Shown one piece after another: positions 4,800 through 14,909 of a stretch of DNA of 15,479 bases. The notes beneath the pieces are model-generated. The model was not told the DNA's origin. It searched no databases and saw nothing but the letters and a program-made list of their open reading frames with translations. Where the stretch lies: contig JAUSKK010000030.1 in NCBI GenBank assembly GCA_030649345.1, positions 1 to 15,479 of the forward strand. Direction: 5' to 3'. Source of the DNA: Candidatus Iainarchaeum sp. Lineage in GTDB: Archaea; Iainarchaeota; Iainarchaeia; Iainarchaeales; 0-14-0-20-34-12. Position 1 is the stretch's first letter, and the number at the start of each line of letters is the position of its first letter. A program made the translations under genes and the position numbers.

Positions 4800-5393
4800 T
4801 CAGTTCATATTTCTTGATTGCAAAAGCTTATTGACTTTCTTCTTTACATTTTCCTGATATTTTTTCAAATATTCTTGTACTCGTTTTTTGTCTAATTTAG
4901 GCAAAAGTTCTTCTTTAATTTCTTGAGTTAAAGGCTGTTGGAAATGAATAAAATCTAAAAATGTTTTTTCTAAATCGCTGACTGGGATTTCCCAATCATA
5001 ATATTTTACGTAATTAAATCCAAAGAATAATTTGCGCTGAATTCGATGCACTAAAATATTGACTCCACTGATCTCTCTTAAACCCAATCTAACCTTTCTA
5101 GGCGTAATAATTATTGGATTCGTTTCTTGTGTTCCAATACCTTGCAATGCCAAAGCATTCTGTAACCCATAATAAAACGGAGAAAACGCAAACCCGTACA
5201 TCATGGGGTCTTCTTGAAAAGAATAAACTCCTTGAGTAATCTTATGCAATTCATTTTTTTTTAATAAAAAATGAATCATTAAATGCAAATAATTCTTGCC
5301 CAACTTTTTGCCATGAAATAATAACTGAATATCCCTCATAGTAAAAATAGACTTAGATTTGAATGAAGATTTGAGTTCCTGAACATACGTCAT
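4800..5393 (-). CDS. abiEi: AbiEi-like antitoxin/transcriptional regulator (N-terminal wHTH plus C-terminal domain)
   Basis: FTMRDIQ...LLKKNELHKITQGVYSF is a wHTH followed by the typical YYGLQNALALQGI segment. The gene sits directly downstream of an AbiEii-type NTase. The ATG at 5393 is preceded by AGGTG. The ORF track uses a GTG at 5399. Confidence 0.65.
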   Translation of the reverse strand: MTYVQELKSSFKSKSIFTMRDIQLLFHGKKLGKNYLHLMIHFLLKKNELHKITQGVYSFQEDPMMYGFAFSPFYYGLQNALALQGIGTQETNPIIITPRKVRLGLREISGVNILVHRIQRKLFFGFNYVKYYDWEIPVSDLEKTFLDFIHFQQPLTQEIKEELLPKLDKKRVQEYLKKYQENVKKKVNKLLQSRNMN

Positions 5394-5401
5394 TTTCACA
5401 C

Positions 5402-6049
5402 CTAACTATATTTCAACAATAAAGCCTGCTTAATCTGCTCAAATGAAGGAACAGCACCAGCATACACAATTGCTTTCAAATCCTTCTCATCCGCAGGTAA
5501 AGGCAACTGTTTTAATAAGTCTTTAATTTTCTTTTCAGTTTCATTTGAAACCTGTGCTTGATTACTTAAAAAATAAACATCATAAATATCCCGAATCAAT
5601 TTACGATTAGTATACGTAATCAGTTTCTCTAAAATTAAATCTTCTACAGACAAAGCAAACACATTTGTATACGTTCCATCCAGTTTCTCATACGCCTGCA
5701 CAACAGGCCTTTTGATAGTTGTAATCATATTTGCTTCCAAACGAACCTCTACGCGTTCATTGGAAATCTTGGAAAAAATAGTTGTACTAGTCTGTTTGTA
5801 TTTATTTAATTTTAAACCCCGTGCTTTCAAAGCAATTTCCAATTCAGACTTAAAGTTTTCTTTTGGCTTGAAATAAAAATCCAAATCTTCTGAAAAACGA
5901 TTCCCAGCAAAACAACGCCAAATTGAAGTACCACCATGCAAGACAGCTTTCGGTTCAACAGAATAAACAATCTCTAAAACTTCATCTTGCAAACTAGCAA
6001 TATCCCGATGAAGCTGTTTCCGCAACCGATTAAACAATGAAATCTTCAT
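5402..6049 (-). CDS. abiEii: AbiEii/DUF1814-type nucleotidyltransferase toxin
   Basis: NTase signature LHGGTSIWRCFAGNRFSEDLDF (nt 5879-5935). The ORF track starts at a TTG at 6064. I prefer the ATG at 6049 because TTATATAA (6071-6078) is centred 25.5 nt upstream of it. Confidence 0.8.
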   Translation of the reverse strand: MKISLFNRLRKQLHRDIASLQDEVLEIVYSVEPKAVLHGGTSIWRCFAGNRFSEDLDFYFKPKENFKSELEIALKARGLKLNKYKQTSTTIFSKISNERVEVRLEANMITTIKRPVVQAYEKLDGTYTNVFALSVEDLILEKLITYTNRKLIRDIYDVYFLSNQAQVSNETEKKIKDLLKQLPLPADEKDLKAIVYAGAVPSFEQIKQALLLKYS

Positions 6050-6066
6050 ATTAATAGTATTCAACG

Positions 6067-7612: not shown

Positions 7613-8773
7613 TTATTGCCTTTTCAGAAAATCTTGCAGCAAAGGTACTGAAAAAGCATAATATCCTCTTTGTGCCCTGTAAATTAATCCCTTATCAATT
7701 AGGCGAACCAAATATTTTTGCATTAGCATGTAATTAAGTTTCATTTTTTTACTAATATATTTGGCTGGAATTTCTTTTTCTTTGCAAGTTGCCATTGCAA
7801 GTAATGCTTTCTTTTCCATTGCAGACGCAAGATTAAATCTGTCTTCAAAGAAACTTTTATCCAACATTTTCAAAAGCTTGTTTTTATTTTGCACTAAATC
7901 GGATTGCAGTACGTTAGCTTTTTTCGCGTTATCCGCTAAAAAGTAACCATAAAATTGCAAAAAATACGGATAACCCTGAGTCTCTTCAATTACTTGACTG
8001 ACTAATTTGCTCTCAAATTTGTACTCAGTTTTCTTTAATGGTTCAGTTAATGCCTTTTCTGCTTCCAATTCGTCAAGGTTTCCAACTTCTTGATAGTTAA
8101 ACATTCTTTCAGTGTATGTTTTTGCTTCTTTAAGATTTGTTTTCAACGCAGGCAAACCAGACAAACATAGAACATATCTGCAACCTTCTCTTTGCACTTG
8201 TGCAATCGCACTTAGCAAACTTGATAGTACGTATTGTTGATCTTCTTTTTTGTCTTTTACTAAATGAAATTCATCGTACAATAATACTACTCCTTTTTTG
8301 TTGGATTTTTCAAAAACTGGCCAATTGGATTCCAGTAATTCTTTCAAGTAATCTTCTAACACTTCTCTTTTTTCTCCATGATACGGTTTATAGGTTATTC
8401 CATAACCAGACAGTTCTTCAACTTTTAGGCTTTCAATTAATTTTTTTCCAGTTTCTTCAATTTTCTTTTTAATAGATACTTCGGCAGCCATTGCAATTAA
8501 GTCTTTTCCAAATACTTGTGCAAATTCAGTTTCATTACAGTAACGTTCGTTAAATTCTCTGTCCATAAACAGCCAGTTATTTGTTTCCGCAAGTATTTTA
8601 TAATGTCTAAGCAAAACTGTTTTCCCTGTTCCGCGTAAACCGTATACTACAATGTTTCTTGGCAGACCTTCTTCTGTTTCTTTTAAAGATTTAATGAATT
8701 CTTGAATGTATTCTTGCCTTCCTGCTAAATATGCTGGTTCAATTCCGTTTCCAGGGGTAAAAGGATTTCTCAT
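7613..8773 (-). CDS. Arch_ATPase-type (PF01637-like) AAA+ ATPase with C-terminal winged helix
   Basis: N-terminus NPFTPGNGIEPAYLAGRQEY, Walker A GLRGTGKT (nt 8618-8641), Walker B VVLLYDEFH, C-terminal wHTH ...LIDKGLIYRAQRGYYAFSVPLLQDFL. The ATG overlaps the upstream stop (ATGA). Confidence 0.75.
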   Translation of the reverse strand: MRNPFTPGNGIEPAYLAGRQEYIQEFIKSLKETEEGLPRNIVVYGLRGTGKTVLLRHYKILAETNNWLFMDREFNERYCNETEFAQVFGKDLIAMAAEVSIKKKIEETGKKLIESLKVEELSGYGITYKPYHGEKREVLEDYLKELLESNWPVFEKSNKKGVVLLYDEFHLVKDKKEDQQYVLSSLLSAIAQVQREGCRYVLCLSGLPALKTNLKEAKTYTERMFNYQEVGNLDELEAEKALTEPLKKTEYKFESKLVSQVIEETQGYPYFLQFYGYFLADNAKKANVLQSDLVQNKNKLLKMLDKSFFEDRFNLASAMEKKALLAMATCKEKEIPAKYISKKMKLNYMLMQKYLVRLIDKGLIYRAQRGYYAFSVPLLQDFLKRQ

Positions 8774-11013
8774 GCAAACAACTCGTTTATTTTTGAAATA
8801 ACTTCAGTTCGTTTTAGTGTATTGCCTAGTTTTTCATACTCCGTTTTCAGGTCTTTATTTGTTACAACAAAATACCAGTCATCTGAAGTTTTTTGCAATT
8901 GATTTAGTTTTGTTTGAATATCTTCTTTTTTTGCTTTCAAAAGCTGGCCTGTTTCAATTTCAAATGCAATGCGCTTGTTTTTAGCAGTAAAGATTATGTC
9001 AGGATTTACCGATTGATAGCGTTCTAGTTCATTTGTATATTTTTTGAGTTCTTGAAAAATAAGTTCACATAACAGATAATGGTTTGCTCCTTCTTTTCCT
9101 GTGTCTTTCCTTACAAAATAGGTGTGTCCTTTTCCTTCGCCAAATCCAGATTCTCGAATTTCATTCCAGCCTGCTGTTTTTAGTATTTCAATTTCTTCAT
9201 TTGTAAGTTTTTTCTTTTTCCAATAATTTCGTTCAAACAAATTTCTGGGCCCTACTGTTGGTGTTTCTTGTAGTTGTTTTAGTTGTTCCTTTGCGGTCAA
9301 TTCTTCTGGATTTGTGGTTATAATTTGGTGTTCTTGTTTGCTTGCAATTATTTTGATAGGAATTCGATCATTCATTGCTAATAACAGGCCAGTTCCGGGT
9401 GTGCTTGTTAGAATGAAGTTTTGTTCTGTTTGCTTTAATCCAAACTTTTGTGTAATGTCTTGAATTACACTTGCTTCTTGTCTGAGTAATACTTTCCAAC
9501 TGGTATTTGCCAGGACTGAGTTTCCTGCTTTTGTATGCAATAAATCATTTACTTCTTGGGTTAGAATCAATAGTCCTGTTCCAAATTTTCTGGCAGTTTT
9601 GCATATTTTAAATAAGTATTCTGCTTGCTCTCCATATTTAAGCAAACTCCAAGCTTCATCTACCACAATTAGTTTTCGTTCTTTGTTTTTTTGAACTTTT
9701 TCATACAAATAATCTAAAATCAAGAACATGATTACTGGTTTGACTTGTTCTGGCATTTCTTTAATATTAAAAGTGATCAAATTCTTTTCAAGATTTAATT
9801 TAGTTGGATTATTCAAGAAAGAAAACGATCCTTTGGCGTAAATTCTTAACCGGTTTAGCAATGCTTCATATGTTAGTTGCTGTATTTTTGAGCGTGTTTT
9901 CTTTTCTTCCTCTTCTAAAACCAAGTAAAGATCTTTTAGCATCGGAGGTGTCTTTTTCCATGTTTCTTGATTCTCTGGAGTAATTCCTTTTCTCAAATAC
10001 GTTTCGTGCAGTGATTTATCCAATATACTTCTTTGTACTTCAGTAAGTTCTCCAAACATGATTTTGAATAAATCCATTAAGGACAACAGTTTGTCTCCGA
10101 AATCTTTTCCCATCAAATCAAGCGGGTTAATAATTGTATTTGAATTTCGGCTGATTTCAATTATTTGTCCTTTGTAAGCATTTGTTAATTCCAAATATTC
10201 TCCTTGTGGGTCAATTACAAATGTTTTAGTTTCGTTTAAAAGATTTCTTAGAATATATAATTTTACAAAAAAGCTTTTTCCTGAACCACTTGAACCTAAT
10301 ACTAATCCATTATAGTTGGCAAATGTATATGGATTGAGGATAATCGGAATATTGTTTGTATAGTTAACTCCGAACATGATGCCTTTTTCTTGTGCGTTTA
10401 AGAAAGCAGTTGTAAAAGGAAAGCAAGCAGCTAATGCACTACTTGAAATATTTCTTTTCATTTTAAGTTTATCTTGCGCTAAAGGCAGAACTGATTGAAG
10501 TGCAGGTTGTTGTTTCAAATAAGGTGTTTTTGGAATAATCATTATTGCATTCAATTCGCTTTCAATTTTCCTGCTCAATAATTCTAGTTCTTGTTTGTTT
10601 TTTGCTCGCGCATTCAAGTATAAACTGAAATTGAATAATTTTTCGTCACCTCTTTGCAAGTTTTCAAGCATTCTATAAGTGTCTTCATATTGAAGTTTCA
10701 ATGAAGGACTTACAATGCCTTTACTTTCACTTGCAATAACATCCGAACGCTGTTTAATCAATTCACGATTTAACTGTTCCAAAACTGTGTTAATGCATTG
10801 TGGTTCAATATGCAATGTAACGTCAAAATTCCCAGGACTTGCTACAATTGCATTTAGCCAGCCTTCTTTTATGAAACGTGGATAACCTACAGCCATTTCT
10901 ACACGATTAAGGGACTGATTGAGAACAATGTGATCATACTTATTCTGCATTTTTGAGGGCTTTAATAGTGCCATCAATTTGGACGCTGTTTGTGGACTTA
11001 ACGAACTAGGCAT
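8770..11013 (-). CDS. VirB4/TraE/ConE-family conjugation ATPase lacking the first ~200 aa of the usual N-domain and carrying an extra C-terminal PD-(D/E)xK-like domain
   Basis: GYPRFIKEGWL...DVTLHIEP (VirB4 N-domain second half), EKLFNFSLYL, Walker A GSSGSGKS (res 240-247, nt 10273-10296), IDPQGEY, INPLD, Walker B LIVVDEAWSLL (D452/E453, nt 9655-9660), RKFGTGLLILTQE. The C-terminal ~158 aa (nt 8773-9246) contain H645, E650, PD672 and E685-I-E687. Confidence 0.85.
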   Translation of the reverse strand: MPSSLSPQTASKLMALLKPSKMQNKYDHIVLNQSLNRVEMAVGYPRFIKEGWLNAIVASPGNFDVTLHIEPQCINTVLEQLNRELIKQRSDVIASESKGIVSPSLKLQYEDTYRMLENLQRGDEKLFNFSLYLNARAKNKQELELLSRKIESELNAIMIIPKTPYLKQQPALQSVLPLAQDKLKMKRNISSSALAACFPFTTAFLNAQEKGIMFGVNYTNNIPIILNPYTFANYNGLVLGSSGSGKSFFVKLYILRNLLNETKTFVIDPQGEYLELTNAYKGQIIEISRNSNTIINPLDLMGKDFGDKLLSLMDLFKIMFGELTEVQRSILDKSLHETYLRKGITPENQETWKKTPPMLKDLYLVLEEEEKKTRSKIQQLTYEALLNRLRIYAKGSFSFLNNPTKLNLEKNLITFNIKEMPEQVKPVIMFLILDYLYEKVQKNKERKLIVVDEAWSLLKYGEQAEYLFKICKTARKFGTGLLILTQEVNDLLHTKAGNSVLANTSWKVLLRQEASVIQDITQKFGLKQTEQNFILTSTPGTGLLLAMNDRIPIKIIASKQEHQIITTNPEELTAKEQLKQLQETPTVGPRNLFERNYWKKKKLTNEEIEILKTAGWNEIRESGFGEGKGHTYFVRKDTGKEGANHYLLCELIFQELKKYTNELERYQSVNPDIIFTAKNKRIAFEIETGQLLKAKKEDIQTKLNQLQKTSDDWYFVVTNKDLKTEYEKLGNTLKRTEVISKINELFA

Positions 11014-11035
11014 TTAAGAAATATTGCCTTTTTTC

Positions 11036-11068
11036 TTTATAACCTCTCGAGATTGAAATTCTATAGAA
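11036..11068 (-). promoter_or_regulatory. Promoter of the VirB4 operon: TATA box plus upstream palindrome
   Basis: TTATAAA (minus-strand reading of 11036-11042) is centred 26 nt from the ATG at 11013. TTCTATAGAA (11059-11068) is centred 50.5 nt from it. Confidence 0.55.
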
Positions 11069-11271
11069 ACTATACTGTGCTATTTTATACTATTGTCTAA
11101 CAATATCAGAATATAGCTTTTTTACAAAATGTTGTTATTATTAAAATGATAAAAAAATAAAATGCTTAAAAATGGCAAATTTATGGCTTTTTTAGAAGAT
11201 AATTTTTATTAATTAAAAAAAGGAACATTTAAAAACTTATACGCGCCAGAATTATTTAGTGATAGTTTAAA

Positions 11272-11490
11272 ATGGATGACGAAAAATTAAACGCAATAAT
11301 TAGAAGACTTGATGCTACTATCGTTGTCTTGTTAAATCAAGACAAAATGCAAGCAATGAATCTAAAAGAGAAAGTTATTGCATTATCTAATACTGGTTTA
11401 AAGGATCCTGAAATTGCGACAATGCTTGGAATTAAAGCTGTTACGGTTCGGGCTATAAAAAGTAAAGAACGGAGTGATAAAAATGGATGA
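11272..11490 (+). CDS. Small HTH protein (sigma-70 region 4/LuxR-like helix-turn-helix), paralog 1
   Basis: 72 aa with an N-terminal helix LNAIIRRLDATIVVLL, then LSNTGLKDPEIATMLGIKAVTVRAIKSK (GL.d.EIA..LG....V pattern). Confidence 0.6.
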   Translation: MDDEKLNAIIRRLDATIVVLLNQDKMQAMNLKEKVIALSNTGLKDPEIATMLGIKAVTVRAIKSKERSDKNG

Positions 11491-11695
11491 ATCTAAAATT
11501 ACTGAAAAGCTTAATACAATTATTAATTTACTTGCGTTACATGTTGTAAAAAAAACAGAATATGCTGAGCAAGTAAGATTATTAATGATTTCGGGGTTAC
11601 GCGATGTTGAAATTGCAAAAATTTTAGGAAAAACAAGGAACAATGTTGCTGTAACTATGAGTAAGCTAAGAAAGATGGGTACTAAGGCAAAATAG
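11483..11695 (+). CDS. Small HTH protein, paralog 2
   Basis: MDESKITEKLNTIINLLALHVV...ISGLRDVEIAKILGKTRNNVAVTMSKLRK parallels paralog 1 (MDDEKLNAII...). The ATG at 11483 is preceded by GGAGTGA and overlaps the upstream stop. The ORF track uses a GTG at 11474. Confidence 0.6.
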   Translation: MDESKITEKLNTIINLLALHVVKKTEYAEQVRLLMISGLRDVEIAKILGKTRNNVAVTMSKLRKMGTKAK

Positions 11696-11709
11696 TAATT
11701 GGTGACAAT

Positions 11710-11979
11710 ATGGAAAAATCAGATAGTGAACTCTTAAAAAAAATTCTCGAAAAAATTGAATTTATTGCAAAACAATACTCTTATAAATTGCTTGAAGAGG
11801 AATTGTCAAATAAAAAATTAAAATTATTATATCAACATACTGGGAAGGGAATTCCGCGACCAAAACTTGAAAAAGTTACTGGGTTAAGTGCTGGTAAGAT
11901 ATCCGGTATTTGGGCTAAATGGGAAAGTAAAGGCCTCTTAAAAAAAGATGGTAAATCATATTACAAAATTTTTGAATGA
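11710..11979 (+). CDS. Small winged-helix DNA-binding protein, third member of the tandem set
   Basis: 89 aa with N-terminal helix LLKKILEKIEFIAKQY, then PKLEKVTGLSAGKISGIWAKWESKGLLKKDGKSYYKI (HTH plus wing). GGTGA lies 6 nt upstream of the ATG. Confidence 0.55.
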   Translation: MEKSDSELLKKILEKIEFIAKQYSYKLLEEELSNKKLKLLYQHTGKGIPRPKLEKVTGLSAGKISGIWAKWESKGLLKKDGKSYYKIFE

Positions 11980-12698
11980 TATTTATGGAAAAATTGAACG
12001 CAAAGAAAAAAATTATTAAAAAAATTGCTACAAAAACGCATCAGAAGGAAAGTTCTATAAAAGTTAGAATTTCAGAGCTTGCATCTAATCATCCCGGATT
12101 GACATGGTTTTCAAAAGCGTACTTATATGCAAAAGAAAAAAATGTTAATATTCTGAGTTTGATTCCAATTAATGACCGAAAAAACTTACCTAGTAAAATT
12201 GAAGTGGAACGACAACCAATAAAAGTTAAAGAAAAGGCCAATAAGCAACGGCAAAAAATACCAATAATTTTTGCGCCATATTGTGATGATCTTTTTGTTA
12301 ATGCACATTTTAACGAATTAAATAAATCAATCTATTATGGTTGTTTTACATCGGCAACTATCTTGAGTCGAAAAATTATTGAAAATAGGTTAATTGAATT
12401 TTTACGCAAGCACTACTCAAGTGACGTCACATTATATTTTAATTCTACAAAGAACAGAATGCAGGATTTTAATACTATATTAACCAATTTACAAAATAAA
12501 TCTAAGGAATTTGGACCTGATCAATCACTTATAAACTCACTAGTTACAAGATGTCATAAATTTAGAGAGCAAGCAAATGGAAATACCCATTCCTTTTTTG
12601 AAATCGTTCGAACAAAAAAAGAATTCGAATCACACAACACGGATCAAATATTTAGTTTACTTGATAAGGTAACTTTAATTCAGCCAAAGAAACTTTAG
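11976..12698 (+). CDS. Protein with a C-terminal DUF4145-like domain, unknown function
   Basis: ELNKSIYYGCFTSATILSRKIIENRLIEFL ... KFREQANGNTHSF resembles the DUF4145 pattern (A..C...G.y.aa..l.R..lE ... R..GN...H). ATGA overlap with the upstream gene. Confidence 0.45.
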   Translation: MIFMEKLNAKKKIIKKIATKTHQKESSIKVRISELASNHPGLTWFSKAYLYAKEKNVNILSLIPINDRKNLPSKIEVERQPIKVKEKANKQRQKIPIIFAPYCDDLFVNAHFNELNKSIYYGCFTSATILSRKIIENRLIEFLRKHYSSDVTLYFNSTKNRMQDFNTILTNLQNKSKEFGPDQSLINSLVTRCHKFREQANGNTHSFFEIVRTKKEFESHNTDQIFSLLDKVTLIQPKKL

Positions 12699-12708
12699 TT
12701 GCCTACTT

Positions 12709-13536
12709 TTACTCACATAACTGAGTAAATACTGAAAAATAATCATTTTCCACTTCAATAAATCCCTCGAAAAAGCTTGCTAGTAGTGTGGTTAGTTCTT
12801 GGTCGTTTAATTGTTTTGATAACAGAGCTGCTTTTTGTATTTTTTCTTTGCATAGTTGAACTCTTACAGTAAGCTGATTTAAGTCTAATTCTTCATTTTT
12901 TGTTTTTTCAACTGGAATAACTACATAAAATAATCGATTTTTTACTTTGTTGTCTGTGATGTATTCTTCTATGAATTTTTTCAATGATTCAAATTGTTCT
13001 AGTAGTTCTTGTTTATTTTGTTTTTTTACTCGATTTTCAAGTTCTCTTAAATATGCAATTACGTTCAAGTCTACTGTTCGCATTACGATTTGTATTGGAA
13101 AATCAAGTGAGTTTAGAAAATCTTTAAATGAGTGGATAACTGCTTTTTGTTCTGATTCGGATAGCATATCAAAGCTTATGGGTAAAACTTGCAGTATTGC
13201 TAACATTCTTCCGTGTGTATAAACTGCATTATTTTCAATTTTCTGCACATCCATAAATTTTTCCATTTTTTTGTCAAAATAACCTGCGTTTCGCATTGAC
13301 GTTAAATATTCTATTCCGTCTTTTAGTTTTCCCCAAGCGCCAACAAATGCAAACGCCCCGCCGGCAATAAACAAAAGTATTGTAATTAGAATTTTCCATT
13401 CAAAGGAAAGTTGCGTTTTTAGAAAAATAAATATTGTTGGAGTAACAAAGATCGCGAGCCAGAATAATTGTTTTGCTGTTAGCCCAAATACGATTTTTTC
13501 TTCGTACTTTAGATTTTGTGGTATTTCGTATGACAT
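12709..13536 (-). CDS. PrgI/VirB3-like two-TM anchor fused to the first part of a VirB4 N-terminal domain
   Basis: N-terminus YEIPQNLKYEEKIVFGLTAKQLFWL plus two TM helices (PrgI family pattern). The cytoplasmic part, VQKIENNAVYTHGRMLAILQVLPISFDMLSESEQKAVIHSFKDFLNSLDFPIQIVMRT, matches the start of VirB4/TrbE N-domains. Confidence 0.7.
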   Translation of the reverse strand: MSYEIPQNLKYEEKIVFGLTAKQLFWLAIFVTPTIFIFLKTQLSFEWKILITILLFIAGGAFAFVGAWGKLKDGIEYLTSMRNAGYFDKKMEKFMDVQKIENNAVYTHGRMLAILQVLPISFDMLSESEQKAVIHSFKDFLNSLDFPIQIVMRTVDLNVIAYLRELENRVKKQNKQELLEQFESLKKFIEEYITDNKVKNRLFYVVIPVEKTKNEELDLNQLTVRVQLCKEKIQKAALLSKQLNDQELTTLLASFFEGFIEVENDYFSVFTQLCE

Positions 13537-13540
13537 TTTT

Positions 13541-14488
13541 TCACTGTCCTGATCTGAATACTTGGATAAAGTTTTTTACTTTAGTTGTAACTGTGGCTGC
13601 TGATTTGAAGACTGCAAAGTAAAACATTCCAATGTTAAGCAATGTCATTAGAACTAGCCCAATGGCTGTTGACAGTAAACCAATTATTGCAATGCCTGCA
13701 AATTCTTCTGCCACTAAATTAATTGCAATTAACAAAATAACGTCCATGATTGGCATTAGTAAAGCAATTCCAATTAAGTTCAGCAATAACATTCCGTAAG
13801 ACCGCAGTGGTTCTATGAAATAGAAAAATATTGCAATAGGGAACAACATGATTCCCATTATGATTATTGCTTGTCTAAAATACAAACTAATTACTGCAGG
13901 AATAATTGAAAGCGCAAGAAAAATTAACCAAATAATATTTAACGGATTCAAGTCAACATTTAGAATGCTTTCTAATCCATTGTTCCAAAGTGCCTGTGTT
14001 ACGCCTGAACTTAATGCTACAATTAATGAGTACCATAAAAGTGAAGTGTTTACAATAGCTAAAATGATTAATGTGTGTTTGAGCCATTCTTTTGCACTGG
14101 CTCTTTGTTCTGCGTCATATGAACCCATTAAGAATTTTGCACCAGTCAAAAAGAACAATAAAACATAAAATGAAGAAATAATTCCAACGATTAAAAACCA
14201 ATAACTTGAGTACTTGAAAACATCCACTGCAGGCAATAAGAATGTTTTTACAATGCCAAGTAATGGATTTACAAAGCCTACGAGTAAACTAGAGATAAAT
14301 CCAGTAAATGCACCTACTATTGCATTAGGTAAACTTGTAAAAAATTCTGCAATTCCATTCAATAAAGGGCCAAAATCTAATGGTGCTGGCGGTGGTGGTT
14401 GGGGTGGAGGCGTAGTATCTGTGCTAGTTGCAAAGGCATTCAGAGTGAATAAAACCATTGCAAACAAAATGAGTATTTTTTTGTTCAT
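13541..14488 (-). CDS. VirB6/TrbL/CedA-like polytopic membrane protein
   Basis: Signal peptide (..LNAFA|TS), Pro-rich linker TTPPPQPPPPAP (nt ~14381-14410), then about 7 TM helices. It sits between the pilin-like and PrgI-like genes. The call rests on topology and context only. Confidence 0.55.
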   Translation of the reverse strand: MNKKILILFAMVLFTLNAFATSTDTTPPPQPPPPAPLDFGPLLNGIAEFFTSLPNAIVGAFTGFISSLLVGFVNPLLGIVKTFLLPAVDVFKYSSYWFLIVGIISSFYVLLFFLTGAKFLMGSYDAEQRASAKEWLKHTLIILAIVNTSLLWYSLIVALSSGVTQALWNNGLESILNVDLNPLNIIWLIFLALSIIPAVISLYFRQAIIIMGIMLFPIAIFFYFIEPLRSYGMLLLNLIGIALLMPIMDVILLIAINLVAEEFAGIAIIGLLSTAIGLVLMTLLNIGMFYFAVFKSAATVTTKVKNFIQVFRSGQ

Positions 14489-14570: not shown

Positions 14571-14909
14571 TCAGGCATTCAAATAACTTACAAGTGCTGG
14601 AGCAACCCAAACTACTGCCATTCCAATGATTGCATAGGACAGCATTTGTTTTGCACCTTCTCTAGCCTGCAAGTTATCCCCTGAAAACATAAACTTCACA
14701 CCAGCAAACGTAATCACAATTACAGCCAAAATTGAAACAATTGCTTTAACCAAATCATAAATTCGATTCAATGGTTCCGTAATTGCACTTACGCTAGTTT
14801 GCTCTAAAGCAAATACCGGGCTACTGTAAAATGACATTAACAGAAACACTGCCATGATCAGTATCGTTGTATTTGCAAACTTTTTCACTTCAACCAATTC
14901 TCTTAGCAT
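14571..14909 (-). CDS. VirB2/TrbC/CedA1-like pilin precursor
   Basis: 112 aa. Signal peptide with an A-x-A-like site (PVFA|LEQ after residue 34). The mature ~78 aa form two hydrophobic helices (about res 49-75 and 88-109) joined by the polar loop SGDNLQAREGAKQ. It is the first gene of the operon. Confidence 0.6.
   Translation of the reverse strand: MLRELVEVKKFANTTILIMAVFLLMSFYSSPVFALEQTSVSAITEPLNRIYDLVKAIVSILAVIVITFAGVKFMFSGDNLQAREGAKQMLSYAIIGMAVVWVAPALVSYLNA

Follow-up and report, generated by a model that had tools for sequence, protein, structure and literature searches.

A PD-(D/E)xK nuclease-like domain at the C-terminus of VirB4 in DPANN archaea

In monoderm-type (MPF_FATA) type IV secretion systems (T4SSs), VirB4/TraC ATPases of the CD1110 family are linked to genes for VirB2-, VirB3/PrgI- and VirB6-like proteins. 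The archaeal Ced and Ted systems are also minimal T4SS derivatives, made up of a pilin, a VirB6-like and a VirB4-like protein with no relaxase (PMC9905601). Here we describe a VirB4 protein with an additional nuclease-like domain of ~150 residues at its C-terminus. It is encoded in a window of 15,479 bp, a complete contig (~32% GC content) of a metagenome-assembled genome of Candidatus Diapherotrites/Iainarchaeum (DPANN), with the T4SS genes on the minus strand at ~7.6-14.9 kb. The VirB4 core passes the CD1110 family cutoff and has the same kinds of linked genes, but family members from Streptomyces, Patescibacteria and some DPANN archaea do not carry such a domain, and the VirB3/VirB4N part is a separate gene in the window. 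Similarity to CedB is only distant (71 bits against an NCBIfam cutoff of 700). For Ced/Ted, HerA-NurA has been proposed as separate DNA-processing machinery. We know of no nuclease domain reported on CedB or TedB.

Motors paired with a nuclease for the preparation or finishing of translocated DNA are known from CoiA/RadA, YraN/ComM, HerA-NurA and the phage large terminase. CoiA and YraN are PD-(D/E)xK enzymes, the fold also predicted for the VirB4 tail, but the motors and nuclease families of these systems differ and none is a T4SS VirB4. PD-(D/E)xK-type enzymes also include the MOBC relaxases TraX of pAD1 and MobC of CloDF13, likened here by description, which start conjugative transfer without a covalent intermediate; in TraX a small N-terminal DNA-binding domain precedes the catalytic domain (PMC12857230). 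MOBC relaxases are separate proteins working with a type IV coupling protein (T4CP) in bacterial plasmids as well as integrative conjugative elements, whereas the VirB4 tail is fused to the motor itself.

The C-terminal extension of VirB4

By its sequence, the N-terminal ~575 residues of the 747-aa window protein are a VirB4/TraC-type ATPase. Pfam matches to P-loop_TraG (6.9e-27), DUF87 and AAA_10 are all above cutoff, and the NCBIfam model 'VirB4-like conjugal transfer ATPase, CD1110 family' (conju_CD1110) covers residues 15-554 with 328.3 bits against a cutoff of 325. The core contains a Walker A motif (GSSGSGKS, ~240-247), a Walker B motif (VVDEAW, ~450-455) and the terminal motif IITTNPEE (564-571). 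GenBank models the gene as a 726-aa 'DUF87 domain-containing protein' starting at M22, and databases otherwise describe it as 'ATP-binding'. The 21 residues preceding M22 (10948-11013) align with homologues and contain an invariant proline, P19, so that translation more probably begins at the ATG at 11013. In two homologues outside the window (P0087 and P0258), an intein/LAGLIDADG homing endonuclease is inserted right after the GKS of Walker A.

A one-genome-per-species scan gave 133 relatives, of which the best 80 were kept. Relatives from Streptomyces, one Patescibacterium and ten DPANN loci stop 5-25 residues past ITTNP(D/E)E, and the window protein continues for ~175 residues past this motif, ~150 of them forming a folded extra domain. 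The tail is thus a genuine addition to canonical VirB4. A tail of ~190 aa is also found on 112 of the 119 other best full-length homologues (43-60% identity), which come from Iainarchaeum, Micrarchaeota, Woesearchaeota, Nanoarchaeota and unclassified archaea. Present in so many independent assemblies, it is not an artefact of assembly or gene calling. A hidden Markov model (HMM) of the tail matches the virB4 end in ~55 fetched genome loci, and the VirB4-domain fusion is confined to DPANN archaea. The original prediction, made from the letters of the window alone, had located an extra C-terminal domain of VirB4 at 8773-9246 on the minus strand, corresponding to codons 590-747 of the gene at 8770..11013; the peptides and residue numbers it quoted are correct, and the comparison with tailed and tail-less relatives bears out the extra domain. 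Its starting point has to be moved: the fold begins near residue 597, and a small subdomain precedes the core at ~636-747.

Fold and putative active site of the tail

An AlphaFold2 model of the tail computed from a 50-sequence alignment has high confidence (predicted local distance difference test score, pLDDT, 94.7; predicted TM-score, pTM, 0.88). It places a small beta-alpha-beta-beta subdomain ahead of a core in which a helix (643-657) is followed by strands 663-665, 673-677 and 680-687, a helix (696-709), a strand (712-717, WYFVVT) and a final helix, strand and helix. This order, alpha-beta-beta-beta-alpha-beta, is that of the restriction-endonuclease (PD-(D/E)xK) fold, and a second model of the core only reproduces it (pLDDT 94.4). 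The fold proposed in the original prediction was accordingly recovered, and the outcome that it had named as refuting, a non-nuclease fold such as a winged helix-turn-helix (wHTH) or oligomerisation domain, did not appear. Conserved residues in or near the small subdomain are K595, L603, L611 and G615, and this part of the tail possibly binds nucleic acid.

Foldseek searches of the Protein Data Bank (PDB) with either model returned VC1899/Card1, Cdn1, Can2, the R2 retrotransposon endonuclease (R2 RLE), N.BspD6I, R.BspD6I and VRR-NUC, and further Hjc/Hje, XPF/ERCC1/Hef, McrC, RecU, YaeQ and BamHI/OkrAI. Neighbours in BFVD comprise phage 'restriction endonuclease' entries, 'endonuclease-like', VRR-NUC and Vsr-like proteins and one 'competence protein'. 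Nearly all named neighbours in both databases belong to the PD-(D/E)xK superfamily and their scores are modest, so the fold class is well supported while a close solved relative is missing. Sequence searches gave no family. There was no significant Pfam match for the tail (E<=10) or for 50 aligned homologues (E<=1), no match in NCBIfam, PADLOC or PHROGs, only chance matches to PDB sequences by phmmer and profile, and no match in a single-sequence word-indexed search with the tail alone. A faint match to the Pfam AHJR-like (archaeal Holliday-junction-resolvase-like) family was seen in three of the 50 members at E >=0.013; with no ExK motif and only a local structural match, the domain does not qualify as an Hjc/AHJR-like enzyme, which would be expected to show E..D..ExK together with a profile match. 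Membership of the CoiA family (PF06054) is likewise not indicated, as there is no Pfam match and the motif is ExE rather than ExQ; the sole link to CoiA is the 'competence protein' neighbour in BFVD (E 1.9e-3).

In an alignment of 113 VirB4 fusion proteins, H645, D672 and E685 are invariant (D672 and E685 in 113/113 each) and K702 (112/113, 99%), E687 (110/113, 97%), E641 (92%) and P671 (88%) are nearly so, with A683, T688, G689, W713, Y726 and R735 also conserved. The three acidic residues that the original prediction assigned to a nuclease signature, D672, E685 and E687, are therefore kept among orthologues bearing the extension, and they are also kept in the paralogues described below. The acidic helix residue that completed the signature, E650, did not hold up: the position is variable (Q in 47, E in 31 and K in 22 of the fusions), and the residues conserved in that helix region are E641 and H645. 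K702 is the lysine that is conserved, and it lies in the helix following the ExE strand. In the AlphaFold2 secondary structure H645 stands at the beginning of the first core helix and D672 at that of strand 2, and strand 3 ends with E685 and E687, so that in the model the conserved residues fall at places expected of catalytic residues. An hhalign comparison with the VRR-NUC protein of a related locus puts PD on PD and E-I-E on E-V-K; this match is not significant and indicates register only.

Judged from sequence, the H..PD..ExE..K pattern resembles the 'migrated lysine' active site of the COG4636/Uma2 family of putative nucleases (DUF820; Tt1808, PDB 1wdj). COG4636/Tt1808 has a histidine in the first helix, a PD-ExX-K arrangement with the lysine in an adjacent helix and a documented PD-ExD-K variant; the order of residues is the same as in the VirB4 tail and the spacing from E to K is 16 there and 17 in the tail (PMC551604). 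CoiA combines PD-ExQ with a basic residue at the same helix position (PMC1189080). Neither the window domain nor its 50 homologues gave a significant match to the COG4636/Uma2 profile (PF05685) at E<=1, and the two families also differ in range, COG4636 being found mostly in Cyanobacteria, with no known link to secretion motors, and the tail in DPANN archaea.

Relatives outside VirB4 and the genomic setting

When 1.84 billion representative proteins were searched exhaustively with HMMER, 482 clusters were identified at E<=1e-3. Among the best 149, 98 are short (<400 aa) proteins with a complete domain: 35 are membrane-anchored, mostly with two N-terminal hydrophobic helices and a long charged linker ahead of the domain, 29 are stand-alone proteins of ~165-210 aa, 20 are fragments or chimeras containing a VirB4 end and 14 have other N-termini. 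A profile search of a 5.8-billion-protein collection yielded solely entries named 'hypothetical protein', most of them from Micrarchaeota and none with a Pfam domain, which makes the domain an unannotated family. It thus represents a previously unannotated PD-(D/E)xK family with VirB4-fused, membrane-anchored and stand-alone architectures. H645 and D672 are invariant in all three, and E685, E687, K702 and Y726 are near-invariant, E685 being replaced by D in 4 of 64 paralogue clusters and K702 being kept in 35/35 membrane-anchored and 27/29 stand-alone paralogues. No relatives of the domain were found in IMG/VR viral contigs. Three chimeric open reading frames (ORFs; P0145, P0167 and P0345) could be real fusions, scars left by recombination or artefacts of assembly: two join an integrase-N-like or thymidylate-kinase N-terminus to the last ~40 VirB4 residues and the domain, and in the third an IS630 transposase is fused to the domain.

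The domain is linked to VirB4 beyond the fusions. In locus L087 (3-1804) a tail-less virB4 gene, ending in ITTNADE, has a stop codon overlapping the start of a gene for a 368-aa membrane-anchored domain protein (P0178), a natural split version of the fusion. The second genetic link is to integrases. On three long Micrarchaeota contigs (L089 6799-8846; L090 6253-8822; L091 6567-8861) the membrane-anchored paralogue lies directly downstream of a tyrosine recombinase gene. This order recurs in 28 of 56 metagenome loci or, if only those with >=1.2 kb of upstream sequence are counted, in 18 of 27; a further five loci show a convergent integrase immediately downstream of the paralogue. The recombinase and paralogue together may represent a small integrative element or an operon; this two-gene Micrarchaeota module recurs among loci L089-L148, and in L091 the integrase has a tRNA-Leu gene 150 bp upstream. 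For one stand-alone copy there is an overlap with the end of an integrase-like gene, and an integrase lies upstream of the pilin gene in eight VirB4-fusion loci. Several genomes have two virB4 loci.

Related fusion loci share the gene order pilin, TrbL_3 (VirB6-like), PrgI/TraC-like and VirB4 with tail. Clustering of neighbouring ORFs across 51 loci revealed no other widely conserved partner except a TrmB-like regulator in 13 loci. The window and the related annotated loci examined showed neither a relaxase nor a T4CP, and with no oriT or att repeats detected the surroundings of the fusion do not resemble those of a MOBC relaxase. Tail-less virB4 loci were also considered as possible carriers of a relaxase or T4CP in place of the domain, and this idea gained no support: ten large neighbouring ORFs are tRNA synthetases, GMP synthase or an IS110 transposase, or have no match. 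On one complete-looking DPANN contig (L003, 13022-16788) genes for SRAP, for a VRR-NUC nuclease and for a family-B DNA polymerase come after the T4SS cluster; they may belong to the host or to an element.

The features of the window are listed in the table. Our VirB6-like label for the 315-aa membrane protein is inferred from synteny, TrbL_3 being matched by the syntenic gene in L001-L003. The protein of the next gene matches the N-terminal third of mycoplasma-type VirB4, and this VirB3/VirB4N part is joined to the ATPase in homologues of ~1000 aa (P0037, P0092 and others) and encoded separately in the window. In the window the two genes are separated by ~1.7 kb (11014-12708) with 28% GC and four plus-strand ORFs, two of ~72 aa that are helix-turn-helix-like, an 89-aa ORF and a 240-aa ORF with no family. 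This segment looks like an insertion, because in the closest locus (L007), as in L001/L003, the two genes directly adjoin each other. Comparison of the 240-aa ORF (11976..12698) with the ~240-aa gene that lies downstream of virB4 in L001/L003 gave E 0.08-1; the two are not homologues, and the idea of a conserved partner was dropped. The STAND-like ATPase gene is translationally coupled to virB4 through an ATGA overlap and does not lie beside virB4 in other loci. Elsewhere the contig encodes MscS, trehalose-6-phosphate synthase and phosphatase, a TrmB-like regulator, and two sets of defence/toxin-type genes on what is a small contig: a Fic-domain protein (273-1220) and an AbiEii/AbiEi-like pair (4800-6064), the latter consisting of an AbiEii nucleotidyltransferase toxin and an upstream 199-aa partner that has no Pfam match and is AbiEi-like by position.

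Table. Positions of the T4SS genes and of the parts of the VirB4 protein in the window
Feature	Position	Strand	Basis or remark
VirB2/TrbC-type T4SS pilin	14571..14909	-	Pfam T4SS_pilin 3.7e-16, TrbC 2.1e-13
315-aa polytopic membrane protein in VirB6/TrbL position	13541..14488	-	synteny; no Pfam match for the window copy
VirB3 (PrgI)-like membrane part with VirB4 N-terminal-domain-like protein	12709..13536	-	Pfam PrgI 5.3e-9; NCBIfam VirB4_plasma positions 3-282
747-aa VirB4-like ATPase with C-terminal extension	8770..11013	-	stop codon 8770-8772
VirB4/TraC ATPase core, residues 1-575	9289..11013	-	Pfam, NCBIfam; tail-less relatives end here
Charged linker, residues 576-596	9226..9288	-	low, gapped column conservation in 113 homologues
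Small beta-alpha-beta-beta subdomain, residues ~597-635	9109..9225	-	AlphaFold2 elements E10-12, H18-26, E30-34, E43-47, pLDDT >90
Predicted PD-(D/E)xK-fold core, residues 636-747	8773..9108	-	AlphaFold2 models and Foldseek neighbours
E641-G-A-N-H645 ('ES..H' in the family), start of first core helix	9079..9093	-	H645 invariant
P671-D672, 'PD' half-motif, start of core strand 2	8998..9003	-	D672 invariant
E685-I-E687-T-G, end of core strand 3	8947..8961	-	E685 at the (D/E) position, E687 at the canonical Lys position
K702, helix after strand 3, candidate 'migrated' catalytic lysine	8908..8910	-	conservation; COG4636 precedent
AAA_16/ATPase_2 STAND-like ATPase with C-terminal wHTH	7613..8773	-	ATG overlaps virB4 stop (GCATGA)

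Possible roles of the domain

We consider the domain very probably an active nuclease, and the balance tips slightly towards its acting on the cargo of the T4SS. Our preferred reading, held tentatively and at somewhat less than even chances, is that the VirB4 tail is a catalytically competent metal-dependent PD-(D/E)xK endonuclease that cuts DNA moved by the T4SS, preferably on the donor side. D672 and E685, together with E687, would bind a divalent metal and K702 from the following helix would replace the canonical lysine. According to established T4SS structures, the cytoplasmic VirB4 hexamer has its C-terminal ATPase domains on the membrane-distal side, which would put the tails at the cytoplasmic entrance of the motor, with nuclease heads ringing the mouth of a minimal DPANN T4SS made up of the pilin, the VirB6-like channel, VirB3/VirB4N and VirB4. 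In a donor cell the domain would make the nick or end that lets a strand feed into the channel, a strand-preparing cut that in bacteria is made by the relaxase. We prefer the donor side because the bacterial MOBC relaxases are PD-(D/E)xK enzymes acting with no covalent intermediate (PMC12857230), because the pairing of integrase and nuclease mirrors the integrase and relaxase core of bacterial mobilizable islands, and because archaea, conjugative plasmids included, have no known relaxases (PMC9905601, PMC12857230).

A number of observations weigh against this reading. The Foldseek scores are weak, with best E-values of 7e-4 for BFVD and 1.6e-3 for the PDB and TM-scores of 0.3-0.58; with the model cut down to the core the E-values were no better and the TM-score rose only to 0.5-0.58. 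The position of the canonical catalytic lysine is held by a glutamate, E687, giving a BamHI-like ExE. An integrase lies within 8 kb of only 8 of ~52 fusion loci, so many fusion clusters may be chromosomal rather than mobile, and the search for att- or oriT-like repeats around integrase-linked loci yielded only short imperfect AT-rich direct matches. In ten DPANN virB4 loci the domain is missing within 8 kb, and a recognisable relaxase or T4CP is missing too, which argues that the domain is accessory and not obligatory for this type of T4SS. Finally, a gene set of pilin, VirB6 and VirB4 only is similar to that of the Ced/Ted importers and points to a role on the import side.

Such a role is the main rival, although we consider it rather unlikely. 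The T4SS would pull in host or environmental DNA or RNA, and the domain would degrade one strand or yield nucleotides for a cell unable to make its own. The match to the Ced/Ted set, with no T4CP or relaxase found (PMC9905601), is joined here by the proposal of T4SS-linked uptake of host nucleic acid in analogous ultrasmall bacteria (bioRxiv 10.64898/2026.06.21.733656), by the presence of the non-specific degradative nucleases Card1, Can2 and Cdn1 among the structural neighbours and by the fit to a parasitic lifestyle. Import would leave the operons of paralogues with tyrosine recombinases unexplained, related DPANN T4SS clusters do without the domain, and the low NCBIfam similarity to CedB also speaks against it. 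The same integrase linkage bears on a role in exclusion or defence, in which the VirB4-borne or membrane-anchored domain would destroy foreign DNA entering the envelope, as in entry exclusion directed at competing elements or viruses. Membrane-anchored paralogues do adjoin integrases, once together with cargo of an island-like kind that includes metal-resistance genes, the fold is similar to restriction endonucleases and CRISPR ancillary nucleases, and the window itself contains AbiE-like and Fic genes. Yet integrase and nuclease follow each other in a fixed order with touching ORFs, which suggests joint function rather than variable cargo, PADLOC matches neither the domain nor its paralogues, and a defence nuclease on the element's own transfer motor would endanger the element's own DNA. 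We therefore regard this role as improbable.

The non-orthodox glutamate at the lysine position raises the question of whether the domain cuts at all. Inactive PD-(D/E)xK folds such as the N-terminal domain of RPB5 are known (PMC551604), and with no coupling protein in the loci examined the fold might serve only to keep DNA, or else a partner protein, at the motor in place of one. However, the three carboxylates, the histidine and the lysine are near-absolutely conserved across >170 sequences at <=50% identity, as would be expected of a catalytic centre and not of a binding surface, and both BamHI-type ExE sites and sites with a migrated lysine are active in other families (PMC551604); a purely non-catalytic module is a little less probable again than a role in exclusion. 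Least probable of all is an Hjc-like structure-specific nuclease that resolves D-loops or junctions when transferred DNA recombines, in the manner of the CoiA/RadA and YraN/ComM pairs. Hjc/Hje are among the best local structural matches (root-mean-square deviation 2.5-3.1 A over 77-87 columns), the faint AHJR-like Pfam matches point the same way, and CoiA and YraN provide examples of motor-partnered PD-(D/E)xK nucleases (bioRxiv 10.1101/2024.02.06.579203), but VirB4 is a membrane-complex ATPase and not a branch-migration helicase, the ExK motif is absent, and tyrosine recombinases resolve their own junctions, leaving the linkage to integrases unexplained.

Taken further, the preferred donor-side reading leads to a speculative proposal, which we consider unlikely as it stands: the domain could be the missing initiator of archaeal T4SS DNA transfer, a relaxase-independent, non-covalent PD-(D/E)xK nickase brought to the channel either as a part fused to VirB4 or through a membrane anchor of its own, and the Micrarchaeota recombinase-nuclease modules could be a new class of integrative mobilizable elements riding these T4SSs.

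A literature search found no description of a VirB4-nuclease fusion or of this domain family, although older work outside the search may contain an earlier mention. The fusion combines known kinds of components rather than founding a new category, since motor-nuclease couplings (terminase, HerA-NurA, RadA/CoiA, ComM/YraN) and PD-(D/E)xK relaxases were already known. Ced/Ted and archaeal conjugative plasmids have no recognisable relaxase, and the origin of their DNA substrate is a stated gap (PMC9905601, PMC12857230). The VirB4 tail is a candidate for the DNA-processing step in such conjugation-like systems, and H645, D672, E685, E687 and K702, within a soluble domain of 150 residues, offer defined targets for work in vitro. 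That a conserved, probable nuclease forms part of the motor suggests nucleic acid as a substrate of the DPANN machine, and the finding bears both on what the T4SS-like machines of DPANN symbionts carry and on how the substrates of archaeal T4SSs are processed.

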